From the NCBI GenBank assembly GCA_965220135.1, contig OZ244802.1, positions 2,084,239 through 2,148,238 on the forward strand: a stretch of 64,000 nt of DNA, in the 5' to 3' direction. Position 1 is the stretch's first letter. Each line of letters opens with the position of its first letter. The notes beneath the pieces are model-generated. The model was not told the DNA's origin, ran no database searches, and saw only the letters and a list, made by a program, of their open reading frames with translations. The position numbers and the translations under genes are program-made. The stretch comes from Chloroflexota bacterium (GTDB lineage: Bacteria; Chloroflexota; UBA11872). Shown here in pieces: positions 3,579 to 59,999 of this stretch.

Positions 3579-4907
3579 TCAACTCTTGGCGATCTGGATA
3601 GCCCTTTTCACGCAGACTTCGCGGTAGAGGCGCCTGGCCAGACGTTCGATGGCCTCCGCGCCCTCCCCGGCAACCGCGGCGCGCCTGGTTTCGATGCGGA
3701 CGAGCAAGGTCTCGTGGAGCGACTGATCGGTGGCGGCAATCAGTGCGATCCAGGTCTCGGCCTCCCGTTGCAGCGCGCGTGCCTCCGCTTCCAGACAATC
3801 CTGGGCGTCGTCGCCAAGCTGGCCGAGCTTGTAGTCCTCGAAGTGTCGAAGTTCGTGCGCCAGCACCGCCGCGAGAGGGATCGGGTCTTCAGCACGTAAG
3901 CCGTCGTTGACCCGAATGCCCAGCGCGGGATTAAACGAGGCCAGCACTCCTTCGGTCATCGATTCGAATTCAATGGCGAGTTGATCACGTTCCGCCAGCT
4001 CCAGCGCGGCTGCGTTGGCGTCCACGCTCTCCAGCAGCGCCAGCGCCGTGCGCAGGAGGTGGTTGGTCGTGTTGTACGTGCGCAACGCGACCCTGGCCGG
4101 AACGAGGCCGGCCGCCTCGGGCGGATCCAGACGGACATCCAGCACCGCGCTCTGGTCCGAGGCGTGCGGCGTCGCCAGCAGATCGTCTGGCAACGCGAGA
4201 TCGCGGTAGATATCGCCCGCGTTCACCAGCACGACCGAGCCAACCGGTTGCCCTCCCTCCACCTCCTCCACCCAGTGCTGCAGCGCCGTCCGTTGGAAGC
4301 GTTGAACCACGAACGGTCCCAATCGCACCGGACGCGACATCGGCAAGCCGTGAAACTCAATGCTGGCGTCCAGATTTCCGAGCTCCAGCGGATTGTTGGC
4401 AAAGGTCTCGGCTATGGCTCGGTCCGTCAGCCAGGCCAGCCGTGCCTGTCGCGCAAACTCGGGCGGACGGGACGGTGGTGCTTCGGCCGCGGGAATGTGA
4501 CGCGCCTCGAGTTCAGCGGCAAATCCACTGCGGTTGAGGAGCTCGAAGAGGTTGGCAATCCCCACCCGATCGTCCGAGGGCGACCACTGAAGCAGGGCAC
4601 GCTGTGTCAGTTGATAGGCGAAGCCACCGTCGTCAATCCAGGGCCGCGACACCGCGGGTCCGAGCGTCCGGGCGCCGCCGAAACGAAGAAATGCATCGTA
4701 GAAGGCCGGGCCGTCGACGTAATTTCGGAGTGCGAATCCAAGGCCGTCCGTATCCCCGGGCTGGAAGAAGGCGCCGCCCGTCACCGGCGTGGCGTTCGGC
4801 GGCGGTGCGGCGGCGGCCTGTCCGGCGCCCGCCAACAGCAGCCCGACCGCCAGGGCCAATGCAATAACGCGCTGGCTGGCTCGGGCGCACGGCGACAGTG
4901 ACGGCAC
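3579..4907 (-). CDS. secreted hypothetical protein with an HExxH-like motif (putative metallopeptidase-like)
   Basis: 442 aa with an N-terminal signal peptide (MPSLSPCARASQRVIALALAVGLLLAGAGQAAA). The C-terminal region carries HELRHFED, which resembles a zinc-binding HExxH...E motif. No confident family assignment. Confidence 0.45.
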   Translation of the reverse strand: MPSLSPCARASQRVIALALAVGLLLAGAGQAAAAPPPNATPVTGGAFFQPGDTDGLGFALRNYVDGPAFYDAFLRFGGARTLGPAVSRPWIDDGGFAYQLTQRALLQWSPSDDRVGIANLFELLNRSGFAAELEARHIPAAEAPPSRPPEFARQARLAWLTDRAIAETFANNPLELGNLDASIEFHGLPMSRPVRLGPFVVQRFQRTALQHWVEEVEGGQPVGSVVLVNAGDIYRDLALPDDLLATPHASDQSAVLDVRLDPPEAAGLVPARVALRTYNTTNHLLRTALALLESVDANAAALELAERDQLAIEFESMTEGVLASFNPALGIRVNDGLRAEDPIPLAAVLAHELRHFEDYKLGQLGDDAQDCLEAEARALQREAETWIALIAATDQSLHETLLVRIETRRAAVAGEGAEAIERLARRLYREVCVKRAIQIAKS

Positions 4908-4978
4908 GGCTAAATCCTGGGGGCCTTCGAGTGCAAGAACGAAGATTCCGGGCGGCGGCGTTACGCTACCGTGCAGAG

Positions 4979-6058
4979 ATGCATAGCGAACACACGCCGC
5001 TCAAACTTACCCGGTACGCCCACGGCGCCGGCTGAGCCTGCAAGCTCAGCCCTGACGAGCTGGCGCACGTGCTGCGCCTGATGCCGCCGATGGTGTCGCC
5101 CGACCTGCTGGTCGGGGGGCAGGGCATGGACGACGCCGCCGTGTTCCGGCTTCGCGACGACCTAGCCGTTGCCCTTACGACGGACGTCTTTACGCCGATT
5201 GTGGATGACGCCTATAGCTTTGGCGCCATCGCCGCCGCGAACGCCCTGAGCGACCTCTACGCCATGGGCGCCACGCCAATCCTGGCGCTCAACATTGCCG
5301 GCTGGCCGCGCGGAACGCTGCCGCTGGATCTGCTGGCCGAGGTGCAGCAGGGCGCCGCTGACAAGGTGCGGGAAGCCGGGGCGGTGATTGGCGGCGGGCA
5401 TTCGATCGACGATCCCGAGCCCAAGTTCGGCCTGGCGGTGCTCGGAACCGTGGATCCGGACGCCGTCAGCACGAACGCGGGAGCGCGTCCGGACGATCTG
5501 CTGGTGCTGACGAAGCCGCTGGGTACCGGGATCATCACAACCGCCGGCAAGTTCGACGCCGCCAGCCAGGCCGCGCTGGATGCAGCGGTCGAGTCCATGA
5601 CCACACTCAATGCGGCAGCGGCCAGGGCCGCCAGCGATCATGGCGCGCACGCCGTAACCGACGTGACGGGCTACGGCCTGCTGGGTCACTTGCGCGAGAT
5701 GCTGAACGCCAGCGGCGTCTCGGCTGAGGTTTACGCCGACAGAATCCCAACGCTGCCGGAGGTCTGGTCGCTGATTGCCGCCGATGAGGTTCCTGGCGGA
5801 ACGGAGCGCAACTTGGCCTCGCTGGAAGGCGATGTTCGCTGGCACGCGGCGGTGGATCGGCCCGCGCGTCTTCTGCTGGCCGATGCGCAAACGAGCGGCG
5901 GGCTGCTGATTGCGATTCCGCCGGAGGACGAAGCCGCGCTGCGGCATGCCCTTGAGCACGCCGGTGCACCGGCGGCCACCGTGGGCCGGATTACCGCACG
6001 AGACACATACTTGATGTACGTTCGCCCGATGGACACCCTCGACGACAACGATGACTAA
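4979..6058 (+). CDS. selD: selenide, water dikinase (selenophosphate synthetase), selenocysteine-containing (in-frame TGA at 5033-5035)
   Basis: The track ORF 5069..6058 is SelD lacking its N-terminus. Reading upstream in the same frame gives ATG(4979) MHSEHTPLKLTRYAHGAG-U(TGA)-ACKLSPDELAHVLRLMPPMVSPDLLVGGQGMDDAAV. This aligns with E. coli SelD [30 protein letters not shown]...DPNLLVGNETRDDAAV, with the TGA at the catalytic Cys17 position. Downstream motif GYGLLGHL is also present. Confidence 0.85.
5036..5080 (+). promoter_or_regulatory. candidate bacterial SECIS hairpin downstream of the selD UGA
   Basis: A GC-rich hairpin GGCGCA-CGUGC-UGCGCC (5062-5078) lies about 27 nt 3' of the UGA, with GU in the apical loop. 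A second palindrome, GCUGAGC...GCUCAGC (5031-5050), spans the UGA itself. Confidence 0.35.
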
Positions 6059-7268
6059 GCGCTCGCCGCGCATCCTGCTCTATACCGGCAAGGGGGGCGT
6101 GGGTAAGACCAGCGTGGCCGCGGCGGCGGCGCTGCGCTGCGCCGACGCCGGCCTGCGAACCGTCGTGCTCAGCACCGACACCGCGCATAGCCTGGGCGAC
6201 TCGCTGGACACCCCGTTGGGACCGGTTCCCAAGCCCGTGGTTGACAACCTGTGGGCGCAGGAATGCGACGTGTACTACAACCTTGAAACGTATTGGGGCA
6301 CGGTGCAGAACTGGGTGGAAGCCGTGCTGACTTGGCGCGGCATGGACAACGTGCTGGCCGATGAAATTGCCGTCTTTCCGGGCATGGAGGAACTGGCCAA
6401 CCTGCTCTGGGTGAACCGGCACGCTTCCTCGGGCGAGTACGACGTGGTGGTGGTGGACTGCGCACCCACGGGCGAGACCCTGCGGTTGCTGGCGTTCCCG
6501 GAAGTCGGCCGCTGGTGGCTGGACAAACTGCTGCCCATCAACCGCCACCTGGCCCGCATGGTGCGGCCGATGGCCCGCCGCGTCACCGACCTGCCGCTGC
6601 CCGAGGACGACGTTTTCGAGGCCATGACCGACTTGGTGGACGAATTGCAGCAGCTGCACGACACCCTGACCGCCTCAAACACCACAACCGTGCGCCTGGT
6701 GGTTAACCCCGAGCGCATGGTGATCCGGGAGGCCCAGCGCAGCTACACCTACCTGACCCTGTACGACCACATCACCGACGCGGTGATTGTGAACCGCGTG
6801 GTGCCCGAGGAGGCCGAGGGGCGCTTCGCCGAGCAGCGCCGTGCCATGCAGGCGCCCTACCTGGGTGACATCCACGCCATGTTCGACCCAATCCCGATTC
6901 TGCAGGTCCATCAGTTCGCCGAGGAAGTGGTTGGGCTAGAGCGCCTTCGCGTCATGGGCGCCCAGATGCACGCCACCTGCGCACCGGCGGAGCGGCTGAT
7001 CGACTACAAGCCGTACGAAATTGCGGAGGTGAAGGGCGGCTTTGAATTCCGCATCCCCGCGCCGTTTCTGGAGAAGTCCAACGCTTCCCTCATTCGTCGC
7101 GGGGACGAGTTGGTCATCCGCATGGGCGCCGCCCGCCGCAACATCGTGCTGCCGCGCGTGCTGGCCCGGATGACCCACAGCGGCGCCCGCCTGGAGGACG
7201 GTCAACTCCGCATCCGCTTTTCGCCGCGCCAGCCAACCGCGTCGGCCGCCCGGAGCCCCAGCGACTAG
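6051..7268 (+). CDS. ArsA/GET3-family anion-transporting ATPase with C-terminal HSP20-like domain
   Basis: 405 aa with a P-loop (GKGGVGKTSVAAA) and DTAHSL, typical of the ArsA family. The C-terminal roughly 100 aa is ArsA_HSP20-like. The start ATGA overlaps the selD stop, indicating translational coupling. Confidence 0.75.
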   Translation: MTKRSPRILLYTGKGGVGKTSVAAAAALRCADAGLRTVVLSTDTAHSLGDSLDTPLGPVPKPVVDNLWAQECDVYYNLETYWGTVQNWVEAVLTWRGMDNVLADEIAVFPGMEELANLLWVNRHASSGEYDVVVVDCAPTGETLRLLAFPEVGRWWLDKLLPINRHLARMVRPMARRVTDLPLPEDDVFEAMTDLVDELQQLHDTLTASNTTTVRLVVNPERMVIREAQRSYTYLTLYDHITDAVIVNRVVPEEAEGRFAEQRRAMQAPYLGDIHAMFDPIPILQVHQFAEEVVGLERLRVMGAQMHATCAPAERLIDYKPYEIAEVKGGFEFRIPAPFLEKSNASLIRRGDELVIRMGAARRNIVLPRVLARMTHSGARLEDGQLRIRFSPRQPTASAARSPSD

Positions 7269-7292: not shown

Positions 7293-7685
7293 GTGATCGC
7301 CAGGGCAATCACCAACGAGACCGTTGATCGTCGGACGGTGGCCGGGGCCACGCGGGTGTTCTCGACGCACGCGGCCGGCGCTCAGCACATGGCCTCCTAC
7401 GTACTCAAGCCCAACGTCGCCTGGGCGCTGTCGGAGTTGTTGGATGAGAAGTCCAAGGACATGACCATCGAGGAAGTGGCCATCGCGCCCGAGAGTTCAT
7501 ACGTCGGCCGAACCATTGGCGAGGTTGGGCTGCGTCAGCATGGTGTGGAAGTCTTGGCGGTTGGGCGCGACGGCGGACAGCAGTTTCTGCCGGCCCGCGA
7601 CGAGGAGCTTCAACCGGACGATGTGCTGGTGATGATTGGACCTCCACGCAACGTGCAGCAGTTTGCCGAGCAGGCCGGCGAATGA
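7293..7685 (+). CDS. TrkA-C (RCK_C) domain protein
   Basis: 130 aa; the C-terminal 70 aa (EVAIAPESSYVGRTIGEVGL...VLVMIGPPRNVQQF) matches the TrkA_C regulatory domain. The start is uncertain (alternative ATG at 7389). Confidence 0.5.
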   Translation: MIARAITNETVDRRTVAGATRVFSTHAAGAQHMASYVLKPNVAWALSELLDEKSKDMTIEEVAIAPESSYVGRTIGEVGLRQHGVEVLAVGRDGGQQFLPARDEELQPDDVLVMIGPPRNVQQFAEQAGE

Positions 7686-7730
7686 CGGTGGCGGCGATGG
7701 TGCCGCCCGCGCTGGGGACGACTCCTTCCT

Positions 7731-8747
7731 ATGCTGGCAGGCATAGGATGCGGTCAACCAAGCGAGACGGTCCGACACGCGAAGCCGGACGTGACCGTTG
7801 GGCCTCGTCGCAGAGGTCGGATGACTAGCGACCGTCCGGTCCTGACTGCCGTGCCCGTGGAAACGTCATCCAAAGCGACGTCGGACGCTGCCATTGCACG
7901 GAGTCCCCGAGCCTACGGACCGACCAATGAGTATCGCTCCAACCGACGGCGCGCCTGGGCTGCCAGCTTGCTAATCGGTCTCAGCACTGTTCTCTTCGCC
8001 TCCGGCTTGCTTGTCTTTGGTCTGATCAATGTCGGGTTAGGCATTACGTTGGCGAGGCAGGGTGTTGACGCCTACAACTCCATGGTCCTCTCGGCAGTTA
8101 CTTGGGCGGCCGAACTGGGCACGGTCATGGCCATTGGTGCGCTGGTCATGGCGGTGGCGGGGCTTGCGTTCTTGAGTTGGCTGGCTCGATCAATAAAGAA
8201 CCTGCACGCCCTTGCGGTCCCCGGCCATCGCCGGCAGGCGGCGTGGTCCGCTATCCCGTTGTTCGCACTCTCCCCGGCGCTGCTTGGGGCCTTCATCGTG
8301 GTCAGCTATGCCTACCCGGAGTCAACAGCGTTGCAAGTGGCGCTGTACGTGGCGGCGGTCGCCAGCCTCGTCAATCCTCTGATTCTGATACGACGCCTTT
8401 GGGCGGCCAGCTTCCCGGACGCCGCAGATGCGTCGGTTGCGCCGGTGTGGCGTGGCGTATGGGTTTGGTGGGGAGCCTATCTAGTTGGTTGGATCGCCGT
8501 GGGTCTCTCTCCGCTGCCGCAATCTGTGAATAGGAGCACCGCTGACGACGCAGTGATTAGTGCTATAGCCAGCGGCTTCCTTGAAATGGCAGCGGCGATG
8601 TGTCTGGTCGTAGCAGCAGTATTGATCGTTCGCATCATGTTCAGCGTCAACGCCATGCAGAAGACCCGCGCCAGCGTCGTGCCACAGCCAGATCTCAGGC
8701 GCGGCCGACGACCGGTTGCGCCCGCAAAACCCTCGGCCACGCAATGA
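7731..8747 (+). CDS. polytopic membrane protein, paralogue 1 of 3 (DUF4328-like family; family name not certain)
   Basis: Multiple TM helices. It shares motifs with the two downstream ORFs: DAYxxxV, FLxWLxRSxxN, LVNPLILIRRLWAAS/LAGPLVVIRRLWVAS, VWVWWGAY/VLVWWAAF and RIMFxxNAMQ. The likely start is the ATG at 7821. Confidence 0.6.
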   Translation: MLAGIGCGQPSETVRHAKPDVTVGPRRRGRMTSDRPVLTAVPVETSSKATSDAAIARSPRAYGPTNEYRSNRRRAWAASLLIGLSTVLFASGLLVFGLINVGLGITLARQGVDAYNSMVLSAVTWAAELGTVMAIGALVMAVAGLAFLSWLARSIKNLHALAVPGHRRQAAWSAIPLFALSPALLGAFIVVSYAYPESTALQVALYVAAVASLVNPLILIRRLWAASFPDAADASVAPVWRGVWVWWGAYLVGWIAVGLSPLPQSVNRSTADDAVISAIASGFLEMAAAMCLVVAAVLIVRIMFSVNAMQKTRASVVPQPDLRRGRRPVAPAKPSATQ

Positions 8748-8822
8748 CAGGGCCACTCCTGCGACAGCATGCATCCGACCGCCCTGCGGTTCTGTCAGAA
8801 TTGCTCGCGCGAACGGGGCTGA
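8748..8822 (+). pseudogene. decayed C-terminal zinc-ribbon tail of paralogue 1 (after an in-frame TGA)
   Basis: In frame after the TGA at 8745, the sequence reads QGHSCDSMHPTALRFCQNCSRERG*. This aligns with the paralogue-2 C-terminus QWQCGACDVMNPTALRFCQNCASERQ*. The TGA replaces the Trp codon, and the first Cys is lost. Confidence 0.45.
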
Positions 8823-9015
8823 GTGCGTAGGCGCTTGTGGGCTGTCTGACTGCGTGGCGAAGTGCTGGTCATGGAATGCTCGTTCTTAAGCTCCATCAAG
8901 GGGTTGCTACGGATGCCACCGCGGTGCCTGGGTCGTTTGCAACCGCCTCCGTTCGCGGCAAGCGAGTCCACTATCACTTGGAGGAGTCCCAACTCAGGCT
9001 CCGAGAAGCCGGCAG

Positions 9016-10011
9016 TTGTGCCAGGTTGAAGCTGCCCAGCACACGACGTCACCCTGCGAAGCAGCGAGCGTTGCTTCGACGTCGAGGCGGGCAGGGCGGA
9101 CGATGACGCGTGTCTATCGGCCCAACCGACGTCGCGCTCTTGTTACGAGCGCGCTGATTGCGCTAAGCGCCGCCCTGTTCGGGCTGGCGCTGCTTGCTTC
9201 CGGTCTGAGCCGCGCCACGTTGGGCGCGATGCTGGTGAGTCAAAAAATCGATGCCTACGAGGCAGCGGTATGGTCGATGCCCGACGGGCAGGACATGACG
9301 TTCCCGGTCGCGGCCATTGGCGCGCTCGCTATGGCTTTCGCCGGCGTCACCTTCTTTCTTTGGCTGACCCGGTCCTGGACGAACGTCGAGGCGCTGCCGG
9401 TTCAGGACGCTCGACCGCAGTCGGGAAACGCCGACGTGGGGTATCTGGTGCTCTTCCCGGCCCTGATTGTGGCTTTCTTTGTTGTCCGGTCGGCTTACCC
9501 GAGTGCCACCGCGACCCATGTTGCGCTCTTCGTAGCGGCCACCGCGAGCCTGGCCGGGCCCCTGGTGGTCATCCGACGCCTCTGGGTAGCCAGCAGCGTG
9601 CGCGTTTCCACGGCTCTGGCGCCGCCAGTCTGGACTGGGGTTCTGGTCTGGTGGGCGGCCTTCGGCGGCGCCTGGATCATCCAGGGGCTAACCATGACTG
9701 TGTTGGCCCAAAGGTGGGATTACTCCCGGTTTGCTGAGCGCGGTATCCAAATGCTGGCTGCGGGCTTCCTTGAGATATCCATGGCGGTTGCTCTGCTTGT
9801 TGCGTCCGTCTTCATCATTCGCATCATGTTTCGCATCAACGCGATGCAGAACGGGCTGGCGCGTGAACTGCCGGAGCCAAGGCCGAGGTTGGAGCGCCGA
9901 GGGGCGCCCAACGAGGCGCGCGCCGCCGCGCAGTGGCAGTGTGGGGCCTGCGACGTCATGAACCCGACCGCCCTGCGGTTCTGCCAGAACTGCGCGAGCG
10001 AACGGCAATAG
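9016..10011 (+). CDS. polytopic membrane protein with intact C-terminal zinc ribbon, paralogue 2 of 3
   Basis: 331-aa ORF (likely start ATG at 9103, MTRVYRPNRRRALV). Same motif set as paralogue 1. The C-terminus ends ...CGACDVMNPTALRFCQNCASERQ, a CxxC..CxxC zinc ribbon. Confidence 0.65.
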   Translation: MCQVEAAQHTTSPCEAASVASTSRRAGRTMTRVYRPNRRRALVTSALIALSAALFGLALLASGLSRATLGAMLVSQKIDAYEAAVWSMPDGQDMTFPVAAIGALAMAFAGVTFFLWLTRSWTNVEALPVQDARPQSGNADVGYLVLFPALIVAFFVVRSAYPSATATHVALFVAATASLAGPLVVIRRLWVASSVRVSTALAPPVWTGVLVWWAAFGGAWIIQGLTMTVLAQRWDYSRFAERGIQMLAAGFLEISMAVALLVASVFIIRIMFRINAMQNGLARELPEPRPRLERRGAPNEARAAAQWQCGACDVMNPTALRFCQNCASERQ

Positions 10012-10236
10012 GCCGCAACCGCCTCACGTGGGGTGCCCGTTGGCGCCTCAGGCCATGGTCGGCAGGGTGAGTGACGCTCAGCCACGTTGACCGGCGGGAT
10101 TGAAAGCCGCACGCCGGCTCGCACCGTCCGGGACCATTCTCGTGCATTGGCGCTGAATTGAATCACGAAACGAGTTGGCCCAACGCAGGTGTCGGGAATG
10201 CAGCGGCCGCGGCGCGTCGAGTAGTCCCCGAATCGG

Positions 10237-11151
10237 ATGCGCGAGTGCCATCATGAGGGCATCATGTCGACTTCGAGCCACGCTGCCGAAACAGCGCTCC
10301 GCGGCTATTGGCGGAACCGACAGCCGGCGCTGTTTGCCAGTTGGACAATCGGCATCTCAGTGACTCTCTTGGCGACGGCGCTGCTGATTTCAAGCGTGTT
10401 CTTCATCGCGCAGGGCGCCGCGCTGGCAGATCAGGGCGCTGAGGCCTACGAGGAGCTCCGGCTGTCCGTGTACATCTGGTTTGAAGTACTGGCCGTGGTC
10501 GGCGGATTAGGGGTGCTCGGCCTGGTCCTGGCGTGTATCGCATTCCTGATCTGGCTGTTCCAGGCGATTGGAAACCTGCGCGTGCTCCCGGCGCCCGACA
10601 TGCGACCACGATCGGAATTGCTGCTCCTTTCCCTGTTCGTTCTGTTCCCTGCGTTGGCAGTGACCTACGTTGTCGTCCGCGAAACCGATCCGAACGCTTG
10701 GCAATTACACGTCGCGCTCCATGCGGCGGCGGCCGCCAGCCTCGTGGGACCTTTTGTCGTCGTCAGTCGCCTGTGGGTTTCCAGCGGCGCACGCTCCACC
10801 AACGGGACCCTGCCGCTTGATTGGAGATCCGTGCTGGTCTGGTGGATTGCCCTTGAGATTGCCTGGATGACGCTTGGATTCGCTCCGGCTGTAATGTCGG
10901 GGGGTTGGGATTACTATCGCTTCCTTGACGGTGTCACCCAGCTGTATGCCGCCGGTGTGCTGCAGGTGATTTCAACGGCAGCCTTGGTTGTTGCGGCGGC
11001 ACGCATCATCCGGATCATGTATCGCGTCAACGAGATGCAGGACGTACTGTTTCGCCAGGTGGTGCGGACAACTTCGCCATCCGACGGACTCGAATCTGGT
11101 GCGCATGGCGCGGCGCCGCGCAGTGTCAGTGCCGGTCCTGCGACGTCATGA
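10237..11151 (+). CDS. polytopic membrane protein, paralogue 3 of 3 (zinc-ribbon tail frameshifted)
   Basis: 304-aa ORF with the same motif set (likely start 10264). The +1 frame across 11090-11216 reads ...QCQCRSCDVMNQTVMRYCQNCAGERPYG..., i.e. the zinc ribbon is present but out of frame. Confidence 0.6.
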   Translation: MRECHHEGIMSTSSHAAETALRGYWRNRQPALFASWTIGISVTLLATALLISSVFFIAQGAALADQGAEAYEELRLSVYIWFEVLAVVGGLGVLGLVLACIAFLIWLFQAIGNLRVLPAPDMRPRSELLLLSLFVLFPALAVTYVVVRETDPNAWQLHVALHAAAAASLVGPFVVVSRLWVSSGARSTNGTLPLDWRSVLVWWIALEIAWMTLGFAPAVMSGGWDYYRFLDGVTQLYAAGVLQVISTAALVVAAARIIRIMYRVNEMQDVLFRQVVRTTSPSDGLESGAHGAAPRSVSAGPATS

Positions 11152-43695: not shown

Positions 43696-44496
43696 CTAAG
43701 CCTCGTTAGATGACTTCCGTACAGACCGCCCGCTGAGCGATTCCTGCGGCAGCACCTTCACGGGAGGTCTGGCTGGCGCTGGGCCCGCGGTGTCCTGGGG
43801 CTTTTCCGGCGTGGCTTCAGGGCTGGGCGCCTTGGGAGTCGCCGGCGCCTCACTCACGGCCGCGGATGTCTCGGCCGCCTGAACGGCCTTGACAGCGTCG
43901 GGATCGGGCTTGGCCGGGGACCGTCGTCGCGACCGCCGTCGCGGCGGCGGGTCCAGGCGCGGCCGGGCGTTCCCGCGCTCCGTTGGCAGGTCGCGGCGGC
44001 CGGGGCCCTCGCTGCGCACCGATTCCAGCACACTCGCAAACTCCACCACGTCATCCGCCGCCTCCACCAGCGCCGGCGGCGCCAGTTCGCGGCTCGTCAC
44101 CAGTTCAACCCGCACCCCTCGCCGCTGCACCGCCTCAACCAGCACGGTCAGATCGGCATCGGTGGTCAGCAGGCTCAGCGCATCCACGTGCGGCGCCAAT
44201 TCCAGCGCGTCCACCGCAATGTCCACGCCCAGGCTGGCCCGGCGCACGCCATCCGCGCGCAGCCGCAGCGGCTTCGCGATCACCTTGAACCCTTCAGCCG
44301 CCAGCAGGCCCAGGCGCTGCTCCGTATCCGGGCGATCATCGTCACGCACACCATAGGCCGCCGCCCGCACCAGCCGGCGATCCCTGGTCAGCTGCTCCCG
44401 CAAGCGCGCATAGGCTACGCGCACCCCGTGATGCCCTGTCATCACGTCCAGCGACGCCAAATCAACAAAGAGCGCCCCTCGCGGCAATATTTCCAT
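43696..44496 (-). CDS. NYN (LabA-like) domain protein with a disordered Pro/Ala/Arg-rich C-terminus
   Basis: An N-terminal about 160 aa NYN/PIN-like fold (ALFVDLASLD...TTDADL) followed by a low-complexity tail. Confidence 0.55.
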   Translation of the reverse strand: MEILPRGALFVDLASLDVMTGHHGVRVAYARLREQLTRDRRLVRAAAYGVRDDDRPDTEQRLGLLAAEGFKVIAKPLRLRADGVRRASLGVDIAVDALELAPHVDALSLLTTDADLTVLVEAVQRRGVRVELVTSRELAPPALVEAADDVVEFASVLESVRSEGPGRRDLPTERGNARPRLDPPPRRRSRRRSPAKPDPDAVKAVQAAETSAAVSEAPATPKAPSPEATPEKPQDTAGPAPARPPVKVLPQESLSGRSVRKSSNEA

Positions 44497-45774: not shown

Positions 45775-45960
45775 CTAGCCTCCGACTCCTGTGCCCAACG
45801 CGGGCGCGATCAGCGACACAATCAGCATAAGCACCGCCAGCAACGCCAGGATTGACCAGACCCCCGACAGCGTGATCCACCGCCGCGGGTTAAACCGCCG
45901 CGTTTTGCGCTCCTCGTCCGGCCGAACCCGTCGACGGCGCCGCCGGCGCCTTGCGCTCAC
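45775..45960 (-). CDS. small membrane protein with Arg-rich N-terminus (61 aa)
   Basis: MSARRRRRRRRVRP... followed by a single TM helix. It overlaps the upstream stop by 4 nt. Confidence 0.3.
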   Translation of the reverse strand: MSARRRRRRRRVRPDEERKTRRFNPRRWITLSGVWSILALLAVLMLIVSLIAPALGTGVGG

Positions 45961-46706
45961 GCCCTGGCCGCCGCGCGCCGGGGGCTCCGCGACCCGTTCC
46001 GCGAACCCATGTGCAAACCCGTCGCCGACGACAGGTCAAACCAGTCGTTCGCCGCCACCCGCAAGTCCTCCGACATCGCGTCCGCGAACGAATACGCCTC
46101 CACCCGCAGCCCGTGCTCCCGCAGGTAATCCACCATCGGCACGTAATCCCCGTCACCTGAAACCAGCGCCACCACGTCCATCGTCGGCAGCCGCCGGATC
46201 ACATCCATCACCAGCACGATATCCAGGTCCGCCTTCCGCGCCCCGTCCGCGAACACCTTGATCGGCTTCGTGACGATGTCGTACCCCTTCTCCCACACCG
46301 GCGCCACCGAGCGCTGATGCTCCAGCCGCCCCGCAAAATCAGCATAAATCGGGCAATACGCCCGTGCGTGGATCAGCCGACGGTCCGCCGTCACCTCGTC
46401 CAGCAGCTTCTTGAAATCCAGCCGGATTGGATCGTCCGGATCCCGGTCGCTCACATTCGCCGTGTCCACAAACACGCCCAGCCGCAACTGCGGCCCTGAG
46501 TGCGCCGTTCCCGACTGATTCCGCATCGCCCCCGCCATCCGCGTCAGCTCGCGCGCCGAATTCGCCAGCGCCCGCTCGCCCGGCCGTTCTTTTGAGATCA
46601 CATCCTTCAGTTCGTCCACCAGCATTCGCAGGTCCTGGCCGTCCGACGACACCTCGTCGCCCATGTCCAGGTCAATGTCTTCGGGAATAGCCGATACGCG
46701 TCGCAT
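45957..46706 (-). CDS. NYN (LabA-like) domain protein, second paralogue
   Basis: LGVFVDTANV...LVSGDGDYVPMVDYL, NYN-type. Confidence 0.6.
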   Translation of the reverse strand: MRRVSAIPEDIDLDMGDEVSSDGQDLRMLVDELKDVISKERPGERALANSARELTRMAGAMRNQSGTAHSGPQLRLGVFVDTANVSDRDPDDPIRLDFKKLLDEVTADRRLIHARAYCPIYADFAGRLEHQRSVAPVWEKGYDIVTKPIKVFADGARKADLDIVLVMDVIRRLPTMDVVALVSGDGDYVPMVDYLREHGLRVEAYSFADAMSEDLRVAANDWFDLSSATGLHMGSRNGSRSPRRAAARA

Positions 46707-49496: not shown

Positions 49497-50240
49497 ATGC
49501 CCAGCTACGGCGTCACGCTCCTGTCCGGTGGACTCGACTCCACCACAGTCGCAGCGCTTGCAAGAGATCGCGTCGACAGCATGTCGGCGATCACATTCCA
49601 CTATGGCCAGAGTCACGCTAAGGAGGTTGAGTGCGCCGTGCGAATCGCCGGCATCTTGGGCATCGAACACAAGCTTCTCGATATCTCATTTCTCTCAGAC
49701 GTTGCTTGGTACTCCGCCCTGACCAATCCCGACCAGTTCGCGGTGCCGAATATCCGCTGCAGTGACGAGATTGGTCACGGCGTCCCGATAACTTACGTGC
49801 CGTTGCGAAATACCATCTTTCTGTCACTTGCAGCAGCCTACTTGGAGAGCAGTATTCTGCACGCCATTGAGGTCGAGCGCGTCGCTATATCGGAGGTTTC
49901 CGCCTACGTGTACTTGGCCCCAAACGCAATCGACTATAGCGGTTACCCAGACTGCCGCCCCGAGTTCTACGACACTATGGGACGGACGCTAGACCTGGGA
50001 AGCAAGCTTTGGACCGGGTACGGCATTTCCATTCAAGTCAAAACCCCAATCATTGACCTGTCGAAGGCTGAGATCGCCACACTCGGAATCAGTCTAAAGG
50101 CTCCATTGGAGCACAGTTGGAGTTGCTACAAGGGAGGCGAGTCTCCATGCGGCTTGTGTGACAGTTGCATCCTCCGTGCAAAGGGCTTTGCCGAAGCTGG
50201 AATCACTGACCCCCTACTTCTAAGGCTTAGTGCCGTCTGA
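49497..50240 (+). CDS. queC: 7-cyano-7-deazaguanine synthase
   Basis: LLSGGLDSTT PP-loop and a C-terminal zinc motif (CYKGGESPCGLCDSC), canonical for QueC. GC is lower than the flanking DNA. Confidence 0.85.
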   Translation: MPSYGVTLLSGGLDSTTVAALARDRVDSMSAITFHYGQSHAKEVECAVRIAGILGIEHKLLDISFLSDVAWYSALTNPDQFAVPNIRCSDEIGHGVPITYVPLRNTIFLSLAAAYLESSILHAIEVERVAISEVSAYVYLAPNAIDYSGYPDCRPEFYDTMGRTLDLGSKLWTGYGISIQVKTPIIDLSKAEIATLGISLKAPLEHSWSCYKGGESPCGLCDSCILRAKGFAEAGITDPLLLRLSAV

Positions 50241-50299
50241 CAATGCATCAAGTAGACCATCGATTGACTGGACACTGCTGTTCTCCAGCCGCAGAATGG

Positions 50300-51496
50300 T
50301 CACGGCGCAGTCGGTGCCTTGACTTGATAAGTTGCTGACTGGCCTGCCGGATTCGGACAGAAGTGCCTGAAGTCACACGCTACACATGTTGCTTCGTCCC
50401 TACAATTGGGGGACCAGGCTTGGAGAATGTTGGTACTAGCAGCTTCGGCAACAATATTCTCCTCTGCCTTACGAACCACTTGGTCGAATTCACGCAAGGC
50501 AGATTCGATACTACTGCGGGAAATTGGTATGACGCGGATTGCTCGACGTAAACGATAGGGCAACCCAAGTTGGCTTGTATCCATACCCGGTCGCCACATT
50601 CTCACAATCTGCTCGTCACGAGACCTAAGATCGGGGCACTCGTCTACGGTGCCGTCTACTAGTCCCCTTCGCAGGGCAGTCATCTCCTCCGATCCCGGCG
50701 TTAATTCGTTAACGTAGATCAGAATACCAGCTGCTACGGGCAGCGCATCGACCTGTCTCTGCCTTAACCAGGCATACGTCTGGATCTGCCAGTCTCCTTG
50801 TTCCCAGTACGGCTCGTCAAGCAGTGGGCGCCGAGTGCCCTTGTAATCCACGATGACTTCGAAGGTTCCCCTTAAATCTGGGCAAACACGGTGAACATGA
50901 TCCCGAATTACATTCCCCTCTGCTCCCTGTCTCAGAGTCATATGAGTTAGGACGTCAACAACTCCATGTACCTCATAGTTGTTACACCGAAGTGCAATAC
51001 CTCCGGTCGGCACGGCACGAGTACCGATTACTCTGCGTTCAGCCGCTGCAACCAGGGGAAATAGGTGAGGACCCAATTCGTTAACCGCGGTCTCGACGCG
51101 GTGATACGCCGAATCTCGGGCTTCGGTGCTCCGAGCTTGCTTGCCTTGTCGCCGGAGGGCATCCTCGACCGCGTTTGCAAAATAACCAATATCGTGCGTC
51201 GCCCAGTTTGGATTGGTTGCACCCCACTCGCGCGCAGTGCAAGGCCAAGGAAAAGTCGGCGGCTGGCTTCCACTCTGACGCGTCTCCGACCAGAAGCGAT
51301 AACACATTTCGAGAGTGCCGTGTATGAACTCGCCGAACCAAAGCTGCACAGGCCTTGAAGGAGGCAAAGCGCTACCATTGTGATACCGATATTGAAGTCT
51401 GCACCGCAAGTACGAAAGCAAGTCGCCAGTCAATGAGTAGGAAGGCACGATATGCTCCGGTCGCTTTACTTCAAGCTTCACGATTACATCTCCCAA
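50300..51496 (-). CDS. PD-(D/E)xK nuclease with C-terminal Fe-S cysteine cluster (Cas4/RecB-like)
   Basis: hhhDYK motif (EVIVDYKG), an N-terminal Cys and a C-terminal C-x5-C-x2-C-x5-C (CRDEATCVACDFRHFC). Confidence 0.5.
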   Translation of the reverse strand: MGDVIVKLEVKRPEHIVPSYSLTGDLLSYLRCRLQYRYHNGSALPPSRPVQLWFGEFIHGTLEMCYRFWSETRQSGSQPPTFPWPCTAREWGATNPNWATHDIGYFANAVEDALRRQGKQARSTEARDSAYHRVETAVNELGPHLFPLVAAAERRVIGTRAVPTGGIALRCNNYEVHGVVDVLTHMTLRQGAEGNVIRDHVHRVCPDLRGTFEVIVDYKGTRRPLLDEPYWEQGDWQIQTYAWLRQRQVDALPVAAGILIYVNELTPGSEEMTALRRGLVDGTVDECPDLRSRDEQIVRMWRPGMDTSQLGLPYRLRRAIRVIPISRSSIESALREFDQVVRKAEENIVAEAASTNILQAWSPNCRDEATCVACDFRHFCPNPAGQSATYQVKAPTAP

Positions 51497-53844
51497 AACG
51501 GCGGTTCAACCTTCACCGGTGCCCTTCTCGTCGCGTAGTCTTGTCTCCAGGGCCAGAACCCATCACGCCGCCAGCCAAGCGCGATATTCCTGATTTCTCT
51601 TTGCGTCGGAAAGCGAAGCAGCGCTTCGTTTCCCACTAGCATTAAAACCGACTGCGGTCGACTATAGGCAACATAGTAGAGTCTGACTAGATCATCAAAT
51701 GTACGATCCAACCCATCTCGATGTCCTCTCAGCGGAGTGGCCAGGAATGGCTCGATATCGTCCTCCGCTTGAACAATATTGGAAATGGAATCGGGAAATC
51801 TCAAGAATCTCTGCATCCGATGATTGCGACTGAAGCGGCTGCCTACATCGATGATAACTAAAGGAAACTCCAGTCCCTTCGACTGATGAATTGTCATGAA
51901 TTGAATTCGCTCCCGCGGAACACTAGGCATAATCTCCTCATCTACATCAATCTCGTCCTGTGCTATCGCTATAAGCGCATCGCGAATTAGACTCTCTCTA
52001 CTTCGCCTTACGTGAGGCCCATGGTTCTTGTCACTAGTATTCTGAAGTATCTGCATGCGGTAAGGCGATGCCTGGGCTGCACTGGCAAGGATACGAGTTA
52101 CGGCCTCCAACCATACTTGGTGTTCAGGGTCGGTCTGAAATCGCGGCATCCAAGTGACTAGAGTGAACACTAATTCTAAGGCTGGCCAATCCGCTGGAAT
52201 GTCAGCCACGACGTGGTCGGACGCTACTGCCTGCCAGTCGAGGATGAATCCCCGAAGACCACGCCCGTCGCTTGGTGTCGGATCACGGCGCAAAAATGAC
52301 TCGGCGCTCCTGCGCCATTGGTTCAGAAAGTAGGCTGCTTCCCTGGTGGGCATGACGTTGTTGACGAAATCTGAATTTGGATCGATTGATAGCAACACAA
52401 GGCCTAGTAGCGTCTGAACATCAGGAATAGACCGGAGTGAGTGGCCCCGAGGATTAAAGACTTCTATGCCCAGGCGTCCTAAGGCCGCCCTGAGTTTTCC
52501 GGGGAATCGAGCAGATTGAGTTCGACCCCACCGATCATAGGTGCTCTCTAACACCGAGTGAGACAAATACACGACATCTCCTATGGCACCTCCACTTGGA
52601 TCCAGATGGAACTCTTGGCCGTTACCTACCTCAATCTGACATCCACCTGCAAGATCCCGTAGGAAAGCTGCGAGATCATCAGCCAGCGTATCCTGATCAG
52701 GTCGAAACATACCTAGCACTGGGATATCCGAACTAGGAATAGATGCAACTACCAGAGGCTTCGCAGGGACAATACGCCCAGTTCCAAACGCAGGATCACT
52801 GGAAATATGTCGATTGAAGAACTCCACGATCTCTGGCTGTGACCGAAAGTTGCGCACCATATCGATTCGAGTTGTATGGCGCCCAGTGGCGTGACGACAG
52901 CGATCCGCAAAATCTGTGAACAACTCAACCGAACCACCACGAAAGCGATACATAGACTGATCGTCATCACCTACAATGGAAACTGCAAGATTGTCTGACT
53001 TCATCAATGCAAAATAGATTGCCTCCTGTAGTGGATTCGTGTCCTGGTACTCATCGACAAGCACGACACGCAAGCCATCGGTCCATTCGTTGAGTTGACC
53101 ACTGGCCAATTGCTCCAAGAAGTGCTCTTCAAGAGTAGCAAAGTCAAACACATTCGCCTGCGAACATTCGAGACGATATGTATCCAACATATCTACGACA
53201 ATTCGTTCCCCAGCACCACTCTGTGCATAAGCTGATGTATCCGCTCGGTCTTGAATCAGCCGCTCCATTAGACGTTTGGTCGTACGAAGCGATTCACCTT
53301 GATTTCTGGGAGGACGTCCATCAAAAGTGTAAGGCGCCAGCACCGAGTCGATGTCCTGTTTGTTGGCTCGATAAGTCTCTTGAAACACCCGACGCTTCAG
53401 AATGAGGGCACTAGCAGACGCGTCGGCCAATGTGGGAGCGATGGCGCCTACCGAACGAAACTCAGTGAGAATGTCATGTACAGTGCTGTCCAGAGTGTCA
53501 ATGCGACAGCGATTTATATCAATATGCAACACATCTTGCTTCTGAGACATAGCCTCCAGCAAGGAAGTTCCCCAATCCAACCAACGACTACGTAATTCCT
53601 GCGCCGCCTTGCGCGTGAAAGTTGTGATGAGAATGTCCTCTGGCATGATATCTTCAACAAGGACGTGACGGAGAGCACGCAACACCAGTACGGTGGTTTT
53701 GCCAGATCCCGGTCCCGCGACTATCTGCAGAACTTTATCCGAATCGTGCGTAATTGCATCTCGCTGAGCTCGATTGGCATCGTCAAATAGATTGCGATTC
53801 AGGAGATTGTCCACAAGATCCAAGAATACTGCGTCGTTAATCAT
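51484..53844 (-). CDS. UvrD/Rep-family superfamily-1 DNA helicase
   Basis: Walker A (AGPGSGKTT), motif II (VDEYQDTN) and UvrD_C-like motifs. 786 aa, lower GC. Confidence 0.75.
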   Translation of the reverse strand: MINDAVFLDLVDNLLNRNLFDDANRAQRDAITHDSDKVLQIVAGPGSGKTTVLVLRALRHVLVEDIMPEDILITTFTRKAAQELRSRWLDWGTSLLEAMSQKQDVLHIDINRCRIDTLDSTVHDILTEFRSVGAIAPTLADASASALILKRRVFQETYRANKQDIDSVLAPYTFDGRPPRNQGESLRTTKRLMERLIQDRADTSAYAQSGAGERIVVDMLDTYRLECSQANVFDFATLEEHFLEQLASGQLNEWTDGLRVVLVDEYQDTNPLQEAIYFALMKSDNLAVSIVGDDDQSMYRFRGGSVELFTDFADRCRHATGRHTTRIDMVRNFRSQPEIVEFFNRHISSDPAFGTGRIVPAKPLVVASIPSSDIPVLGMFRPDQDTLADDLAAFLRDLAGGCQIEVGNGQEFHLDPSGGAIGDVVYLSHSVLESTYDRWGRTQSARFPGKLRAALGRLGIEVFNPRGHSLRSIPDVQTLLGLVLLSIDPNSDFVNNVMPTREAAYFLNQWRRSAESFLRRDPTPSDGRGLRGFILDWQAVASDHVVADIPADWPALELVFTLVTWMPRFQTDPEHQVWLEAVTRILASAAQASPYRMQILQNTSDKNHGPHVRRSRESLIRDALIAIAQDEIDVDEEIMPSVPRERIQFMTIHQSKGLEFPLVIIDVGSRFSRNHRMQRFLRFPDSISNIVQAEDDIEPFLATPLRGHRDGLDRTFDDLVRLYYVAYSRPQSVLMLVGNEALLRFPTQREIRNIALGWRRDGFWPWRQDYATRRAPVKVEPPFWEM

Positions 53845-55610
53845 TGTTTCAAGTGCTTCGCCACATTTGTGTACATCATTAGTGTATTATGTGCTCCACG
53901 ACGCTTATTCCTATTGGAGCCACGGAAAATAAGCATGTGAATCCCTAAGCGCTTGCAGAAACTGCAGCGGCACTGTCGCCAAGGACGCTCTAGGAGTGTT
54001 CGCCTGTATTTTTCACGCATAGACTCGGTGTCGCTGGATCTCGCCAGATGCCTGTCATAGTCAAGGATTGCTTGGAGCACTTCACTCAAATTTACTCGGT
54101 CTCTATCATATTCTGAGAGCAAGCTGAGGACTTGGTGTTCCAGTGATTCGAGCCTAGCAATGTCTACGTTGATTCCTGTGAGACGACGCCTTGTGCGTCC
54201 ATCACTCGTCATTGGAACTCGGAGTGCAGCGTACCACTGGCCGTCTGGTGCCAAGTAGTTTTGGTCCGATCGCAGCCACGCCTTGCGGAAGTATGATGCG
54301 CTGTCGAAGCTGTCGACTCGCAGCTCTCGAAAGAGGGGCTGTAGTTTCGGTCTGTATATCCCAAAGAGATGAATCCAAGGTCTCTCTGGCAGTTCTTCTG
54401 CGACCTGCATGATAGCCCGTACGGTTTCTTCTATATCTGCATCCCCTCGCGGAACGAGACCGCCGACTGCTAGATGGCGATAGCCAAACTCGTAATAGGC
54501 ACGTACCGATTGAGCATACTGTGCTGGGTTCAAACCTTGGATCGTGCCCACCGGCGTGAAACGGGCCTTTCTCTCGGCAGCCGACTCAATGAATAGTCGA
54601 GCGTTCTCCTTCGTTATGGATATGCGTTCTTGTCGTTCTCCGTTGGAGAGCTCTATTCGTTCACCATTTTTTCGCGTTACGGCAACCGGGATGTGATCCA
54701 CCGATGCTCCAAAATCAAATCCATACGATTCATAGAGGGCGACTGCCTGATCAACAGAAATAGTCGGAGTCTCTTCGTTTACGTAGCTGAACGCTCCACA
54801 GTCTCCAAAGACGTATTGGTCAGCCGAGAGTCCGAAGTGCTTTCGCAAGTGTATCGGCGAGAGTGCGCTCTCCTCAGTCCCTCTCAGAGTCCGCAACGGA
54901 CCCTTCTTGGCCGCTTGTTGCGCGAGGCTAACCAGTATGCCATCGGACATGCGATTGGGCTGCATTAGCACAGAACAATGTCGATCTCCTCTTTCTGACC
55001 GAGTAGATCCGGAAAAGGAGTCGCCAGCGAAGTCGAAGCCTGGATCCAGCAAGTCATCCCAATCTGGTAGGAAATACCTGAAGCGACCAGAACCCGGCTC
55101 CACCGCAGCACTTACTCTCCGGGACGGCGATGGATGCGTAAGGAATGACTTGATTCGGTTGAGCTTTTTTCCAATGCCACCCGCAAACATTTCTAACTTC
55201 AGACCAAGCTTATCTAGGCCTGGCTGGACTGCGGGCATATAGTCCTTTCCCAATGACACATGAATCGAATGGTGGCTACCTGCCCATCCCGATAGTATTG
55301 ACGCACATGTGTCAGCGCTCGCGAGCGCCGTCGCACGATCCATCCGCCTGTCATAGTCACTAATCCCCTTGAGAATTCCGAACAAGCCGTGCTCGGCAGA
55401 AAGTACGGCTATGGATACATCCTCGGGCCACTGGTAGTCCCTTAGGAACTTTCTGACTACACGAAATGCCGGGCCGTCATACCGGTGCAATGCTGGCAGC
55501 AGGCCGTCGGAGTCAAGCTTGCGATCAGCACAACCTAGAATCAATAGCCTCTTATTCAAGCGACTCGAACCCAAACGAATATTGACGACATCTGGCTTGT
55601 GTCGAGCCAC
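53841..55610 (-). CDS. tRNA-guanine-transglycosylase-like (DpdA-type) protein with an uncharacterised ~180-aa N-terminal domain
   Basis: The C-terminal about 400 aa carry TGT-like motifs: FGDCGAFSY (compare DSGGFQ), IHLFGIYRP (compare VHLLGVGRP) and RVDSFDSASYFR (compare LFDCVLPTR). A terminal Zn-like CRCSFCKRLG...H is present. This is assigned by motif only. Confidence 0.5.
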   Translation of the reverse strand: MARHKPDVVNIRLGSSRLNKRLLILGCADRKLDSDGLLPALHRYDGPAFRVVRKFLRDYQWPEDVSIAVLSAEHGLFGILKGISDYDRRMDRATALASADTCASILSGWAGSHHSIHVSLGKDYMPAVQPGLDKLGLKLEMFAGGIGKKLNRIKSFLTHPSPSRRVSAAVEPGSGRFRYFLPDWDDLLDPGFDFAGDSFSGSTRSERGDRHCSVLMQPNRMSDGILVSLAQQAAKKGPLRTLRGTEESALSPIHLRKHFGLSADQYVFGDCGAFSYVNEETPTISVDQAVALYESYGFDFGASVDHIPVAVTRKNGERIELSNGERQERISITKENARLFIESAAERKARFTPVGTIQGLNPAQYAQSVRAYYEFGYRHLAVGGLVPRGDADIEETVRAIMQVAEELPERPWIHLFGIYRPKLQPLFRELRVDSFDSASYFRKAWLRSDQNYLAPDGQWYAALRVPMTSDGRTRRRLTGINVDIARLESLEHQVLSLLSEYDRDRVNLSEVLQAILDYDRHLARSSDTESMREKYRRTLLERPWRQCRCSFCKRLGIHMLIFRGSNRNKRRGAHNTLMMYTNVAKHLKQ

Positions 55611-55692
55611 CTCTCAAGACCAGGATAGCTTTGTCTCGTACCCGCCCGTTATTCACGATATCTATCGCCTTAGCCTGCGTGCTTCAAGTGAC

Positions 55693-56346
55693 TCATCGTA
55701 CTACCTTAATGGCCTGAGAAGTCTCCGCAAAGTTTGGCCTTGATCTGATCCAGCGGACAAGCGCGTAAACCAGAGGTGTATCTATAGCCGCGATGCCAAC
55801 CTTGACAAGGTATTGGGTGACCATCATGTTCAACAGAACTGGCCCAGGAACTGTACCGGCGAACGCAATAGATATGAATAGCGTAGTATCCACTGCTTGA
55901 GAAACCATGGTCGAGGCATTATTTCGGAACCATAGATGGCGACCGCTCGTGACTCGCCGTAGATGGTGAAAGACCAACACGTCACTATTTTGACTCACGA
56001 GGTACGCGAGCATCGATCCGAGGACAATTCGGGGAACCGCTCCTAGGATATCGTCATAAGATCCCTGACTCTCCCAAAAGCCTGCCGGCGGTAGTATTCG
56101 AGCTACATATACAAGAACCACCATAGCGACGCTTAGTGCAAAGCCATACCAAACAATGCGAGTTGCAACTTTGCGACCATAGAGCTCGGAAATCGTGTCC
56201 GTGACTAGGAACGTAAATGGGTAGGCGATCGTTCCTGCGGGAAGCACCCAGCCGTTTATATCGACTGGCTTGACGGCGACGATGTTTGCCACCACCAGCA
56301 AGGTCACGAAGCTCATCGCCAGGGCTGTTAACGTCACACGACACAT
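55693..56346 (-). CDS. YhhQ/DUF165-family queuosine-precursor (preQ0/preQ1) transporter
   Basis: AYPFTFLVTDTISELYGRK signature and 6 TM helices, at about 217 aa. Confidence 0.7.
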   Translation of the reverse strand: MCRVTLTALAMSFVTLLVVANIVAVKPVDINGWVLPAGTIAYPFTFLVTDTISELYGRKVATRIVWYGFALSVAMVVLVYVARILPPAGFWESQGSYDDILGAVPRIVLGSMLAYLVSQNSDVLVFHHLRRVTSGRHLWFRNNASTMVSQAVDTTLFISIAFAGTVPGPVLLNMMVTQYLVKVGIAAIDTPLVYALVRWIRSRPNFAETSQAIKVVR

Positions 56347-59127: not shown

Positions 59128-59999
59128 GCTCGCACCGCGTCGCGCAGGAACACGTCGAATGCGTTCGGGATGTCCCGCGCGTTGAACTTGTAGCAGGCTT
59201 CCGTCACGTAGGCGTGCGCGTGCTTCTTCGAGTAGAAGTGGTGGCTGCCCCACCATGCCCGCTTCAGGAGCGCCCAAAAGCTCTCCATCGTGTTGACGTG
59301 AATCATGCCGTCCACGTAGCGGGCCGCGTGGTCTACGACCGCGTGGCGCATCGTCCGGCCAACGCGCCGGTAGGCCGGCCACTGGTCCGTCATGAGTACG
59401 CTGGCGTCTTTGTCCACGTTGCGCTCAATGAACGCTTGCAGGTCTTTCCCGCGCACGCGCGGGGATGGTTCGGCGGCAACGCGCCCGCCGCGCTCTACGA
59501 CGCCGATGATCGGGAGCTTGCGGGTACCACGACCGCGCGGGGCCTGCGGGTGATTGTCGTCGTCGCGCTTGTTGCGCTTGCGCGGCTTCCCGCCGATGTA
59601 GGCTTCGTCCGCTTCGACGATGCCGACCATCAGGTCCGGCTCGCCCACCATCGCGCTGCGAATCTTCATGAGCATCCGGTACGCGGTCTTCTGCGGGATG
59701 TCGAGGTCGCGCCCGAGTTGCGGGCTGCTAATGGACTTCTTCGCGTTCAGCACCAGCGAGATTGCCAGGAACCACTTGCGCAGGTCGGTTCGGGTCTTCG
59801 AGAAAATCGTGCCACTGAGCACGGTGAATGCCGCGCGGCAGGCGTGGCAATTGCGGCGGCCGATGCCGTCCGTCCGGTGCCCGACGCGCTCGGAACCGCA
59901 GTGCGGGCAGACGGGCTGCTTGCCCCAGCGGACGCGCTCCAGGTGCTCAATGCAGGCTTCCTGGTCGGGGAACTGGTCGAAGATTCGGATGAGGTCCAT
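59124..59999 (-). CDS. IS1595-family transposase
   Basis: N-terminal zinc ribbon (CPHCGSERV...CHACRAAF) and a DDE_Tnp_IS1595 core (SVLMTDQWPAY...). Confidence 0.8.
   Translation of the reverse strand: MDLIRIFDQFPDQEACIEHLERVRWGKQPVCPHCGSERVGHRTDGIGRRNCHACRAAFTVLSGTIFSKTRTDLRKWFLAISLVLNAKKSISSPQLGRDLDIPQKTAYRMLMKIRSAMVGEPDLMVGIVEADEAYIGGKPRKRNKRDDDNHPQAPRGRGTRKLPIIGVVERGGRVAAEPSPRVRGKDLQAFIERNVDKDASVLMTDQWPAYRRVGRTMRHAVVDHAARYVDGMIHVNTMESFWALLKRAWWGSHHFYSKKHAHAYVTEACYKFNARDIPNAFDVFLRDAVRA

Follow-up and report, generated by a model that had tools for sequence, protein, structure and literature searches.

The recoding of UGA by SelB and a selenocysteine insertion sequence (SECIS) is the standard mechanism of selenocysteine (Sec) insertion, and Sec-containing forms of selenide, water dikinase (SelD) are textbook examples of its products. 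In the Escherichia coli enzyme, Cys17 and Lys20 are catalytic, and the SelD proteins of Aquifex aeolicus (PDB 2YYE/2ZOD) and Haemophilus influenzae are native Sec forms. In the literature, SelD is counted as one of the two selenoproteins found most widely in bacteria, and as the second most widespread prokaryotic selenoprotein family (PMC1794560, PMC13188914). Conversions of Sec to Cys have also been described in SelD, sometimes accompanied by remnant SECIS-like structures (PMC1794560). Here, we describe a selD gene in a 64,000-nucleotide stretch of contig OZ244802.1 (hereafter, the window). As judged from sequence comparison, this gene very probably encodes a functional SelD whose catalytic N-terminal loop residue is Sec.

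An In-Frame TGA at the Catalytic Position of SelD

The full selD coding sequence occupies positions 4979..6058 of the forward strand and comprises 359 codons, including a UGA read as Sec at codon 19; it is supported by matches to the TIGR00476 profile and to PDB entry 3U0O, the SelD of E. coli. The gene begins with an ATG at 4979..4981 (+), 18 codons 5′ of the Sec codon, and the first in-frame stop upstream of this start varies in position. The TGA itself lies at 5033..5035 (+), the equivalent of E. coli SelD Cys17, and the frame stays open from there to a TAA at 6056-6058 (+). An earlier note on this DNA had claimed that mechanical detection of open reading frames (ORFs) truncates the gene and that the UGA sits at the catalytic Cys17 position. 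The first claim was borne out, as the mechanical list holds only a GTG-initiated ORF of 329 residues (5069..6058, +) without the catalytic Gly-rich loop.

Support for the second claim comes from profile and structural-database alignments that span the TGA, together with the conservation among relatives described below. Translation of 4979-6058 gives MHSEHTPLKLTRYAHGAG before the TGA and ACKLSPDELAHVL... after it. With Cys written for the TGA, the protein scores 377.4 bits against TIGR00476 (cut-off 125) and 374.5 bits against NF002098 (cut-off 299), and both of these NCBIfam matches start at model position 1-3. The TIGR00476 match places protein residues 9-317 on model positions 1-310 in one stretch that crosses the TGA, so that the N-terminal homology holds under profile alignment. 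A phmmer search of the PDB likewise returned E. coli SelD (3U0O) as the best match (E = 2.5e-83), with residues 7-338 aligned on 5-334, and the PLKLTRYAHGAGCACKLSP segment of this alignment puts TGA codon 19 on Cys17 and K22 on Lys20. The PurM-like domain pair AIRS and AIRS_C (PF00586 and PF02769) is precomputed on essentially all SelD proteins of the close relatives, and the window SelD also matches, more weakly, the ThiL, HypE, and PurL models of the same superfamily.

Conservation of the TGA and Its Flanks

For comparison, DNA was fetched around ten N-terminally truncated SelD calls from relatives, with assemblies taken from NCBI, ENA, and Logan. TGA occurs at the same codon in nine distinct relatives (L081, L083, L084, L085, L087, L089, L091, L092, and L093), which, together with the window gene, form a set of ten sequences with 56-97% pairwise protein identity. 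The flanks of the TGA in this clade read KLT(R/H/Q)Y(A/S)(H/P)GAG before it and A(C/S)KLS after it. Moreover, an ATG is found exactly 18 codons 5′ of the TGA in eight of the nine Sec-type relatives, with that of L089 at 12 codons. Over the 11 codons preceding the TGA, the relatives show 32 synonymous versus 16 non-synonymous differences from the window sequence, an excess which argues that this segment is translated.

Were the true codon at 5033-5035 TGC or TGT, a case for which the earlier note had allowed, a single wrong base from sequencing or assembly would suffice to give the TGA. The relatives were assembled independently, in part as long-read contigs of 2-3.8 Mb, and the assemblies from NCBI, ENA, and Logan read an identical TGA at this position in all nine Sec-type relatives, making an error of this kind vanishingly improbable. 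A tenth relative, L094, does carry TGC at the Sec codon (L094 774-776; GAGCGCK) while being 61% identical and sharing the same gene order, which indicates that a switch between Sec and Cys took place inside this lineage. In L084 (around 9965-9976), Sec is kept and Ser takes the place of the second loop Cys (G-U-A-S-K), as in many Sec-type SelDs of other phyla.

Public annotation of the clade departs from this picture in a consistent way. The 67 closest public protein clusters (P0001-P0067; 60-97% local identity) are nearly all 311-330 residues long, and nearly all begin MLRLMPP or MPPMV, just past the TGA position. More distant SelD entries (~60% identical, labelled Actinomycetota/Acidimicrobiia) are 346-375 residues long and carry GAGCACK, and the call for L094/P0067 is truncated despite its Cys codon. 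Going by these sequences, N-terminal truncation is a systematic public annotation error for this clade. It could be argued that the public calls are right, that the true product is a truncated protein starting at GTG 5069 or ATG 5081, and that the upstream homology is a relic, given that both start codons are present and that nearly all public clade calls use them. Such a protein would be without the Gly-rich loop that bears the equivalents of Cys/Sec17 and Lys20, and its production would leave unexplained the conserved 18 upstream codons, the ATG, the TGA, and the synonymous excess; we regard it as very unlikely.

The clade itself is uncultured and GC-rich, and it probably belongs to Chloroflexota, on the basis of the NCBI label (Chloroflexi) of one member, P0053, that is 66% identical. 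When a genome collection was scanned with the clade alignment, the matches listed included only distant selD loci (<=60% identity), and 80 diverse non-clade loci among these listed matches were used as a cross-phylum comparison set. At the Sec codon position, 48 of the 80 have TGA and 29 have TGC/TGT.

A SECIS Hairpin Downstream of the UGA

The earlier note had also proposed that a hairpin at 5062..5078 (+) is a SECIS, and this proposal gained support from published criteria, from frozen synonymous sites, and from covariation across phyla. The hairpin has the core GGCGCA-CGUGC-UGCGCC, with the apical loop CGUGC at 5068-5072, and the helix register found across phyla extends over 5060-5080. It consists of a 6-bp stem and a 5-nt loop, folds at -9.1 kcal/mol, and is spaced such that the stem begins 26 nt and the loop 32 nt after the UGA. 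Bacterial SECIS (bSECIS) elements are recognized by a loop of 3-9 nt, a stem of 4-16 bp, a UGA-loop distance of 16-37 nt, a minimum free energy <= -7.5 kcal/mol, and a G at loop position 1 or 2 that precedes a G or U (PMC13188914). The window hairpin falls within all of these limits, including the loop (C-G-U), the 32-nt spacing, and the folding energy.

Within the clade, the hairpin is near-invariant, third codon positions included. The ten clade sequences contain 132 columns with an invariant, degenerate amino acid, only six of which use a single codon throughout, and these single-codon columns are concentrated in the 14 codons after the TGA (5/10, versus 1/122 elsewhere; Fisher p = 4.7e-6). 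The five frozen codons there are CTC for Leu, GAG for Glu, GCG for Ala, CAC for His, and GTG for Val. This bears directly on whether the TGA could be a nonsense mutation, with selD a pseudogene or the source of only an 18-residue leader peptide, a notion that draws on the way in which gene callers stop or start around the TGA and on the fact that the Sec machinery is not seen in the window. Decay would not freeze the synonymous sites of a hairpin, and, moreover, nine relatives retain the TGA at pairwise identities as low as 56% among the ten sequences, selection is purifying on either side of it, and what follows it is a full-length SelD with every domain. A pseudogene or leader is, on these grounds, extremely unlikely.

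Further evidence for the SECIS comes from 58 distinct Sec-type selD mRNAs of many phyla, which align without gaps around the TGA. Helix columns 40-48/52-60 of this alignment, corresponding to 5060-5080 in the window, show both-sided compensatory changes in seven of nine pairs, and the variants seen across phyla include GGCGCAG/CUGCGCC, GGCUCAG/CUGAGUC, GGCCCAG/CUGGGCC, and GUCGCAG/CUGCGGC. Among these mRNAs, 70% of helix cells are paired, versus 31-48% in controls whose partner strand is shifted by 1-3 columns, and the covariation score of 0.258 compares with 0.075-0.136 in the shifted controls and is reached in 0/500 shuffles. Over the interval +22..+52, Sec-type genes fold at a median of -10.3 kcal/mol and Cys-type genes at -4.5 kcal/mol. 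In the Cys-type clade member L094, the hairpin is lost, and the same interval folds at -3.6 kcal/mol.

Several observations weigh against the combined interpretation of a Sec codon and SECIS. The stability of the hairpin is only modestly unusual for its GC-rich background (z = -2.2 for the 17-mer and -1.3 for 66 nt); since these single-sequence z-scores are weak, the case for the SECIS rests on comparative evidence. The loop both begins and ends with C in the clade, leaving the optional closing loop pair absent, and no Rfam family was matched at the gathering score in the window or at a permissive threshold in the site region. In addition, no tRNA gene, tRNA-Sec, SelA, or SelB was detected in the 64-kb window, where a Pfam scan covered the ~50 larger ORFs, nor did the 20-kb loci of clade relatives show a tRNA-Sec, SelA, or SelB at up to 10 kb from selD.

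A few other RNA candidates arose near the site and were set aside. A match to Hammerhead_II at 4984-5068 (+) scored 18.6 bits versus a gathering score of 37 (E = 0.18 in 251 nt) and was judged to be due to chance, being driven by CUGACGAG and GC-rich hairpins. The other permissive Rfam matches near the site, to mir-7143 and to a flavivirus element, were at chance level.

A second hairpin, GGCUGAGC-CUGCAA-GCUCAGCC, encloses the UGA at 5030..5051 (+) and folds at -14.4 kcal/mol. Across the 58 Sec-type sequences, it is 80% paired and its changes are one-sided only, and at most of its pairs the bases are dictated by the peptide encoded there, G-U-A-x-K-L-(S/G)-P. The sole free pairing base, the third position of a Leu/Ile codon, is C/U in 24/48 non-clade Sec forms versus 19/30 Cys forms. 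With one-sided changes and no enrichment in Sec forms, this hairpin was rejected as an established RNA element, and it is likely a side effect of the encoded peptide. The Leu codon within it is CTC in 10/10 clade sequences, while CTC makes up 20% of the Leu codons in the window, and this clade-wide usage leaves a small possibility of local selection on the hairpin.

Genetic Code and Selenocysteine Machinery

TGA is the ordinary stop codon of 19 of the 37 window genes, and the commonest stop among them, which excludes, within the window, a genome-wide reassignment of UGA and makes the recoding local. This matters for the suggestion that the UGA specifies one of the standard amino acids (Cys, Trp, or Gly), whether through near-cognate suppression or because the code is altered. 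Such a suggestion gains something from Sec insertion being a prediction here and from the Sec machinery not having been located in the window. It is at odds with the standard code and with a SECIS-type hairpin that is conserved and covaries specifically in UGA-type selD and that is lost in the TGC-type L094, and decoding as a standard amino acid therefore appears extremely improbable.

As for the machinery, nine non-clade loci (from Clostridium, Verrucomicrobiota, Acidobacteriota, and others) have selD beside selA, selB, and tRNA-SeC. For the organism of the window, we infer that selA, selB, and selC lie elsewhere in the genome, based on the conservation argument and on the published Sec-decoding trait of Chloroflexi (PMC5322559). 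The earlier note had further predicted that other TGA-interrupted genes would be mis-split, and this expectation found no support within the 64-kb window. Three crude scans, which considered abutting same-frame ORFs, coding potential around in-frame TGAs, and bSECIS-style elements upstream of called genes, and which are blind to C-terminal Sec codons, recovered no such gene besides selD.

Proposed Decoding and Its Significance

Taken as a working model, translation would begin at ATG 4979, and SelB·GTP·Sec-tRNA(Sec), positioned on the hairpin at 5062-5078, would deliver Sec at UGA 5033-5035 in place of termination. Following this presumed insertion, translation would continue to the TAA ending at 6058 and yield a 359-residue enzyme with the loop GAG-U-AC-K. 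As selenophosphate, the product of SelD, is needed for Sec-tRNA(Sec), the expression of selD would depend on its own product.

The correct selD product would then be a protein of 359 residues with Sec19, versus the fragment of 325-329 residues given by ORF finders. The gene also marks the organism, and the whole uncultured clade, as putative users of the selenocysteine code, and it leads one to expect selA, selB, and selC, and perhaps other selenoprotein genes as well, outside the window. Moreover, the ungapped alignment of 58 sequences, in which the helix register is fixed across phyla, could seed a covariance model of the selD SECIS. Our knowledge of selenium biology is unchanged by this gene.

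The Neighborhood of selD

Directly 3′ of selD lies a gene (6051..7268, +) for a Get3/ArsA-family ATPase with a C-terminal HSP20-like domain (PF02374 and PF17886; 259.6 bits for TIGR00345, cut-off 135). In the window, the first 8 nt of this gene are also the last 8 nt of selD (ATGACTAA), and a stop/start overlap of 8-20 nt is found in nearly all clade members, the Cys-type L094 included, making the two genes translationally coupled operon partners in this clade. With the exception of L091, the ATPase gene is directly 3′ of selD in every clade relative with sequence reaching that far. Adjacency of selD and ArsA was seen in none of the 80 listed non-clade selD loci, and no paper linking ArsA with SelD was found in the literature; the two that contain both terms deal with arsenite stress and with genomes of sulfate reducers. 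This coupling is the only clade-specific feature, and it probably amounts to conserved gene order and nothing more. It is conceivable that the ATPase is a dedicated selenium-handling partner, perhaps one that delivers or chaperones either SelD or a selenium substrate, as opposed to a neighbor kept by descent, though we consider such a role unlikely.

The clade shares a broader synteny as well, consisting of tyrosyl-tRNA synthetase, a protein of 435-453 residues without a Pfam match, and then the divergently oriented selD and ArsA-like ATPase genes. In the window, the Pfam-less protein corresponds to a divergent ORF of 442 residues (3579-4907, -) with a signal-peptide-like N-terminus and no Pfam or NCBIfam match. 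All clade relatives have a counterpart, 46-72% identical, at the equivalent site, and shorter gene calls were made for it in two of them. A few kb 5′ of selD, in a region that would lie beyond the left end of the window, relatives also encode a fusion of serine hydroxymethyltransferase (SHMT) and glycine-cleavage T-protein (GCV_T) domains of ~1100-1134 residues (L081 1356-4760, L083 1297-4701, L092 1569-4874, and others).

Between the divergent ORF and selD, the clade alignment revealed a motif at 4960..4972 (+), GTTACGCTACCGT in the window and GTTACGGTAGATT in relatives, that ends 6 nt before the ATG. Its consensus, GTTACG(C/G)TA(G/C/A)(A/C)(T/G)T, keeps exactly this 6-nt distance to the start codon of selD in nearly all members of the clade (L081-L094). 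The motif may be a -10-like promoter element, in which case the mRNA would be leaderless or nearly so; a scan for E. coli-type consensus promoters did not detect it.

Farther downstream, the ArsA-like gene is followed in five relatives (L083, L084, L087, L092, and L093) by a complete gene for a TrkA-type K+ channel of 345-361 residues (Ion_trans_2, TrkA_N, and TrkA_C). The window has at this point, at 7293-7685 (+), only a TrkA_C remnant of 130 residues. It is followed by three ORFs (7731-8747, 9016-10011, and 10237-11151, all +), the first two without a Pfam match and the third matching DUF4328 only. The region 7293-11151 has a lower GC content and a strong negative AT skew, L081 also has unannotated ORFs there, and in the window the region looks like an insertion or replacement.

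Other Features of the Window

A low-GC island at 49497-56346, with a GC content of 0.51-0.53 versus ~0.66 elsewhere, looks like a horizontally acquired cluster for 7-deazaguanine DNA modification (Dpd-type). It begins with QueC (49497-50240, +), which is followed by a PD-(D/E)XK nuclease (50300-51496, -), a UvrD-like helicase (51484-53844, -), a DpdA of 589 residues (53841-55610, -; 346.5 bits for NF041059, cut-off 200), and a Vut_1/YhhQ-type transporter (55693-56346, -), and a DNA methylase is encoded nearby (57487-59382, -). Finally, two NYN-domain proteins, predicted to be RNases, are encoded at 43696-44496 and 45957-46706 (both -), where they flank a gene for an M50 peptidase/CBS protein.

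Comparison with Known Systems

The window SelD resembles that of E. coli (3U0O) in family and length, with the GAG-x-x-C-K loop in register and Lys20 conserved. The two differ in that the E. coli gene has Cys17 and no SECIS, whereas the window gene has a UGA and a SECIS hairpin. With the Sec-type bacterial SelDs, such as that of A. aeolicus, whose chain scores 193 bits against the window SelD, it shares Sec at the Cys17 equivalent of the flexible N-terminal loop, and it departs from them in lineage only, coming from an uncultured, GC-rich clade with truncated public calls. Within that clade, L094 is a case of the Sec-to-Cys conversion already described for SelD.

The hairpin likewise conforms to the bSECIS consensus, of which the E. 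coli fdhF SECIS is the prototype, in being a stem-loop within the coding sequence, 3′ of the UGA, with a small apical loop containing G and then U. It deviates in its spacing of 32 nt, which comes close to the upper limit, and in that the UGA is covered by a hairpin of its own rather than by a single long, uninterrupted stem. Moreover, the other selD SECIS elements mostly have a G-C pair closing the loop (CAG GUN CUG), whereas the window clade has C·C. Set beside these known systems, the window gene is an unannotated member of the well-known Sec-SelD kind.

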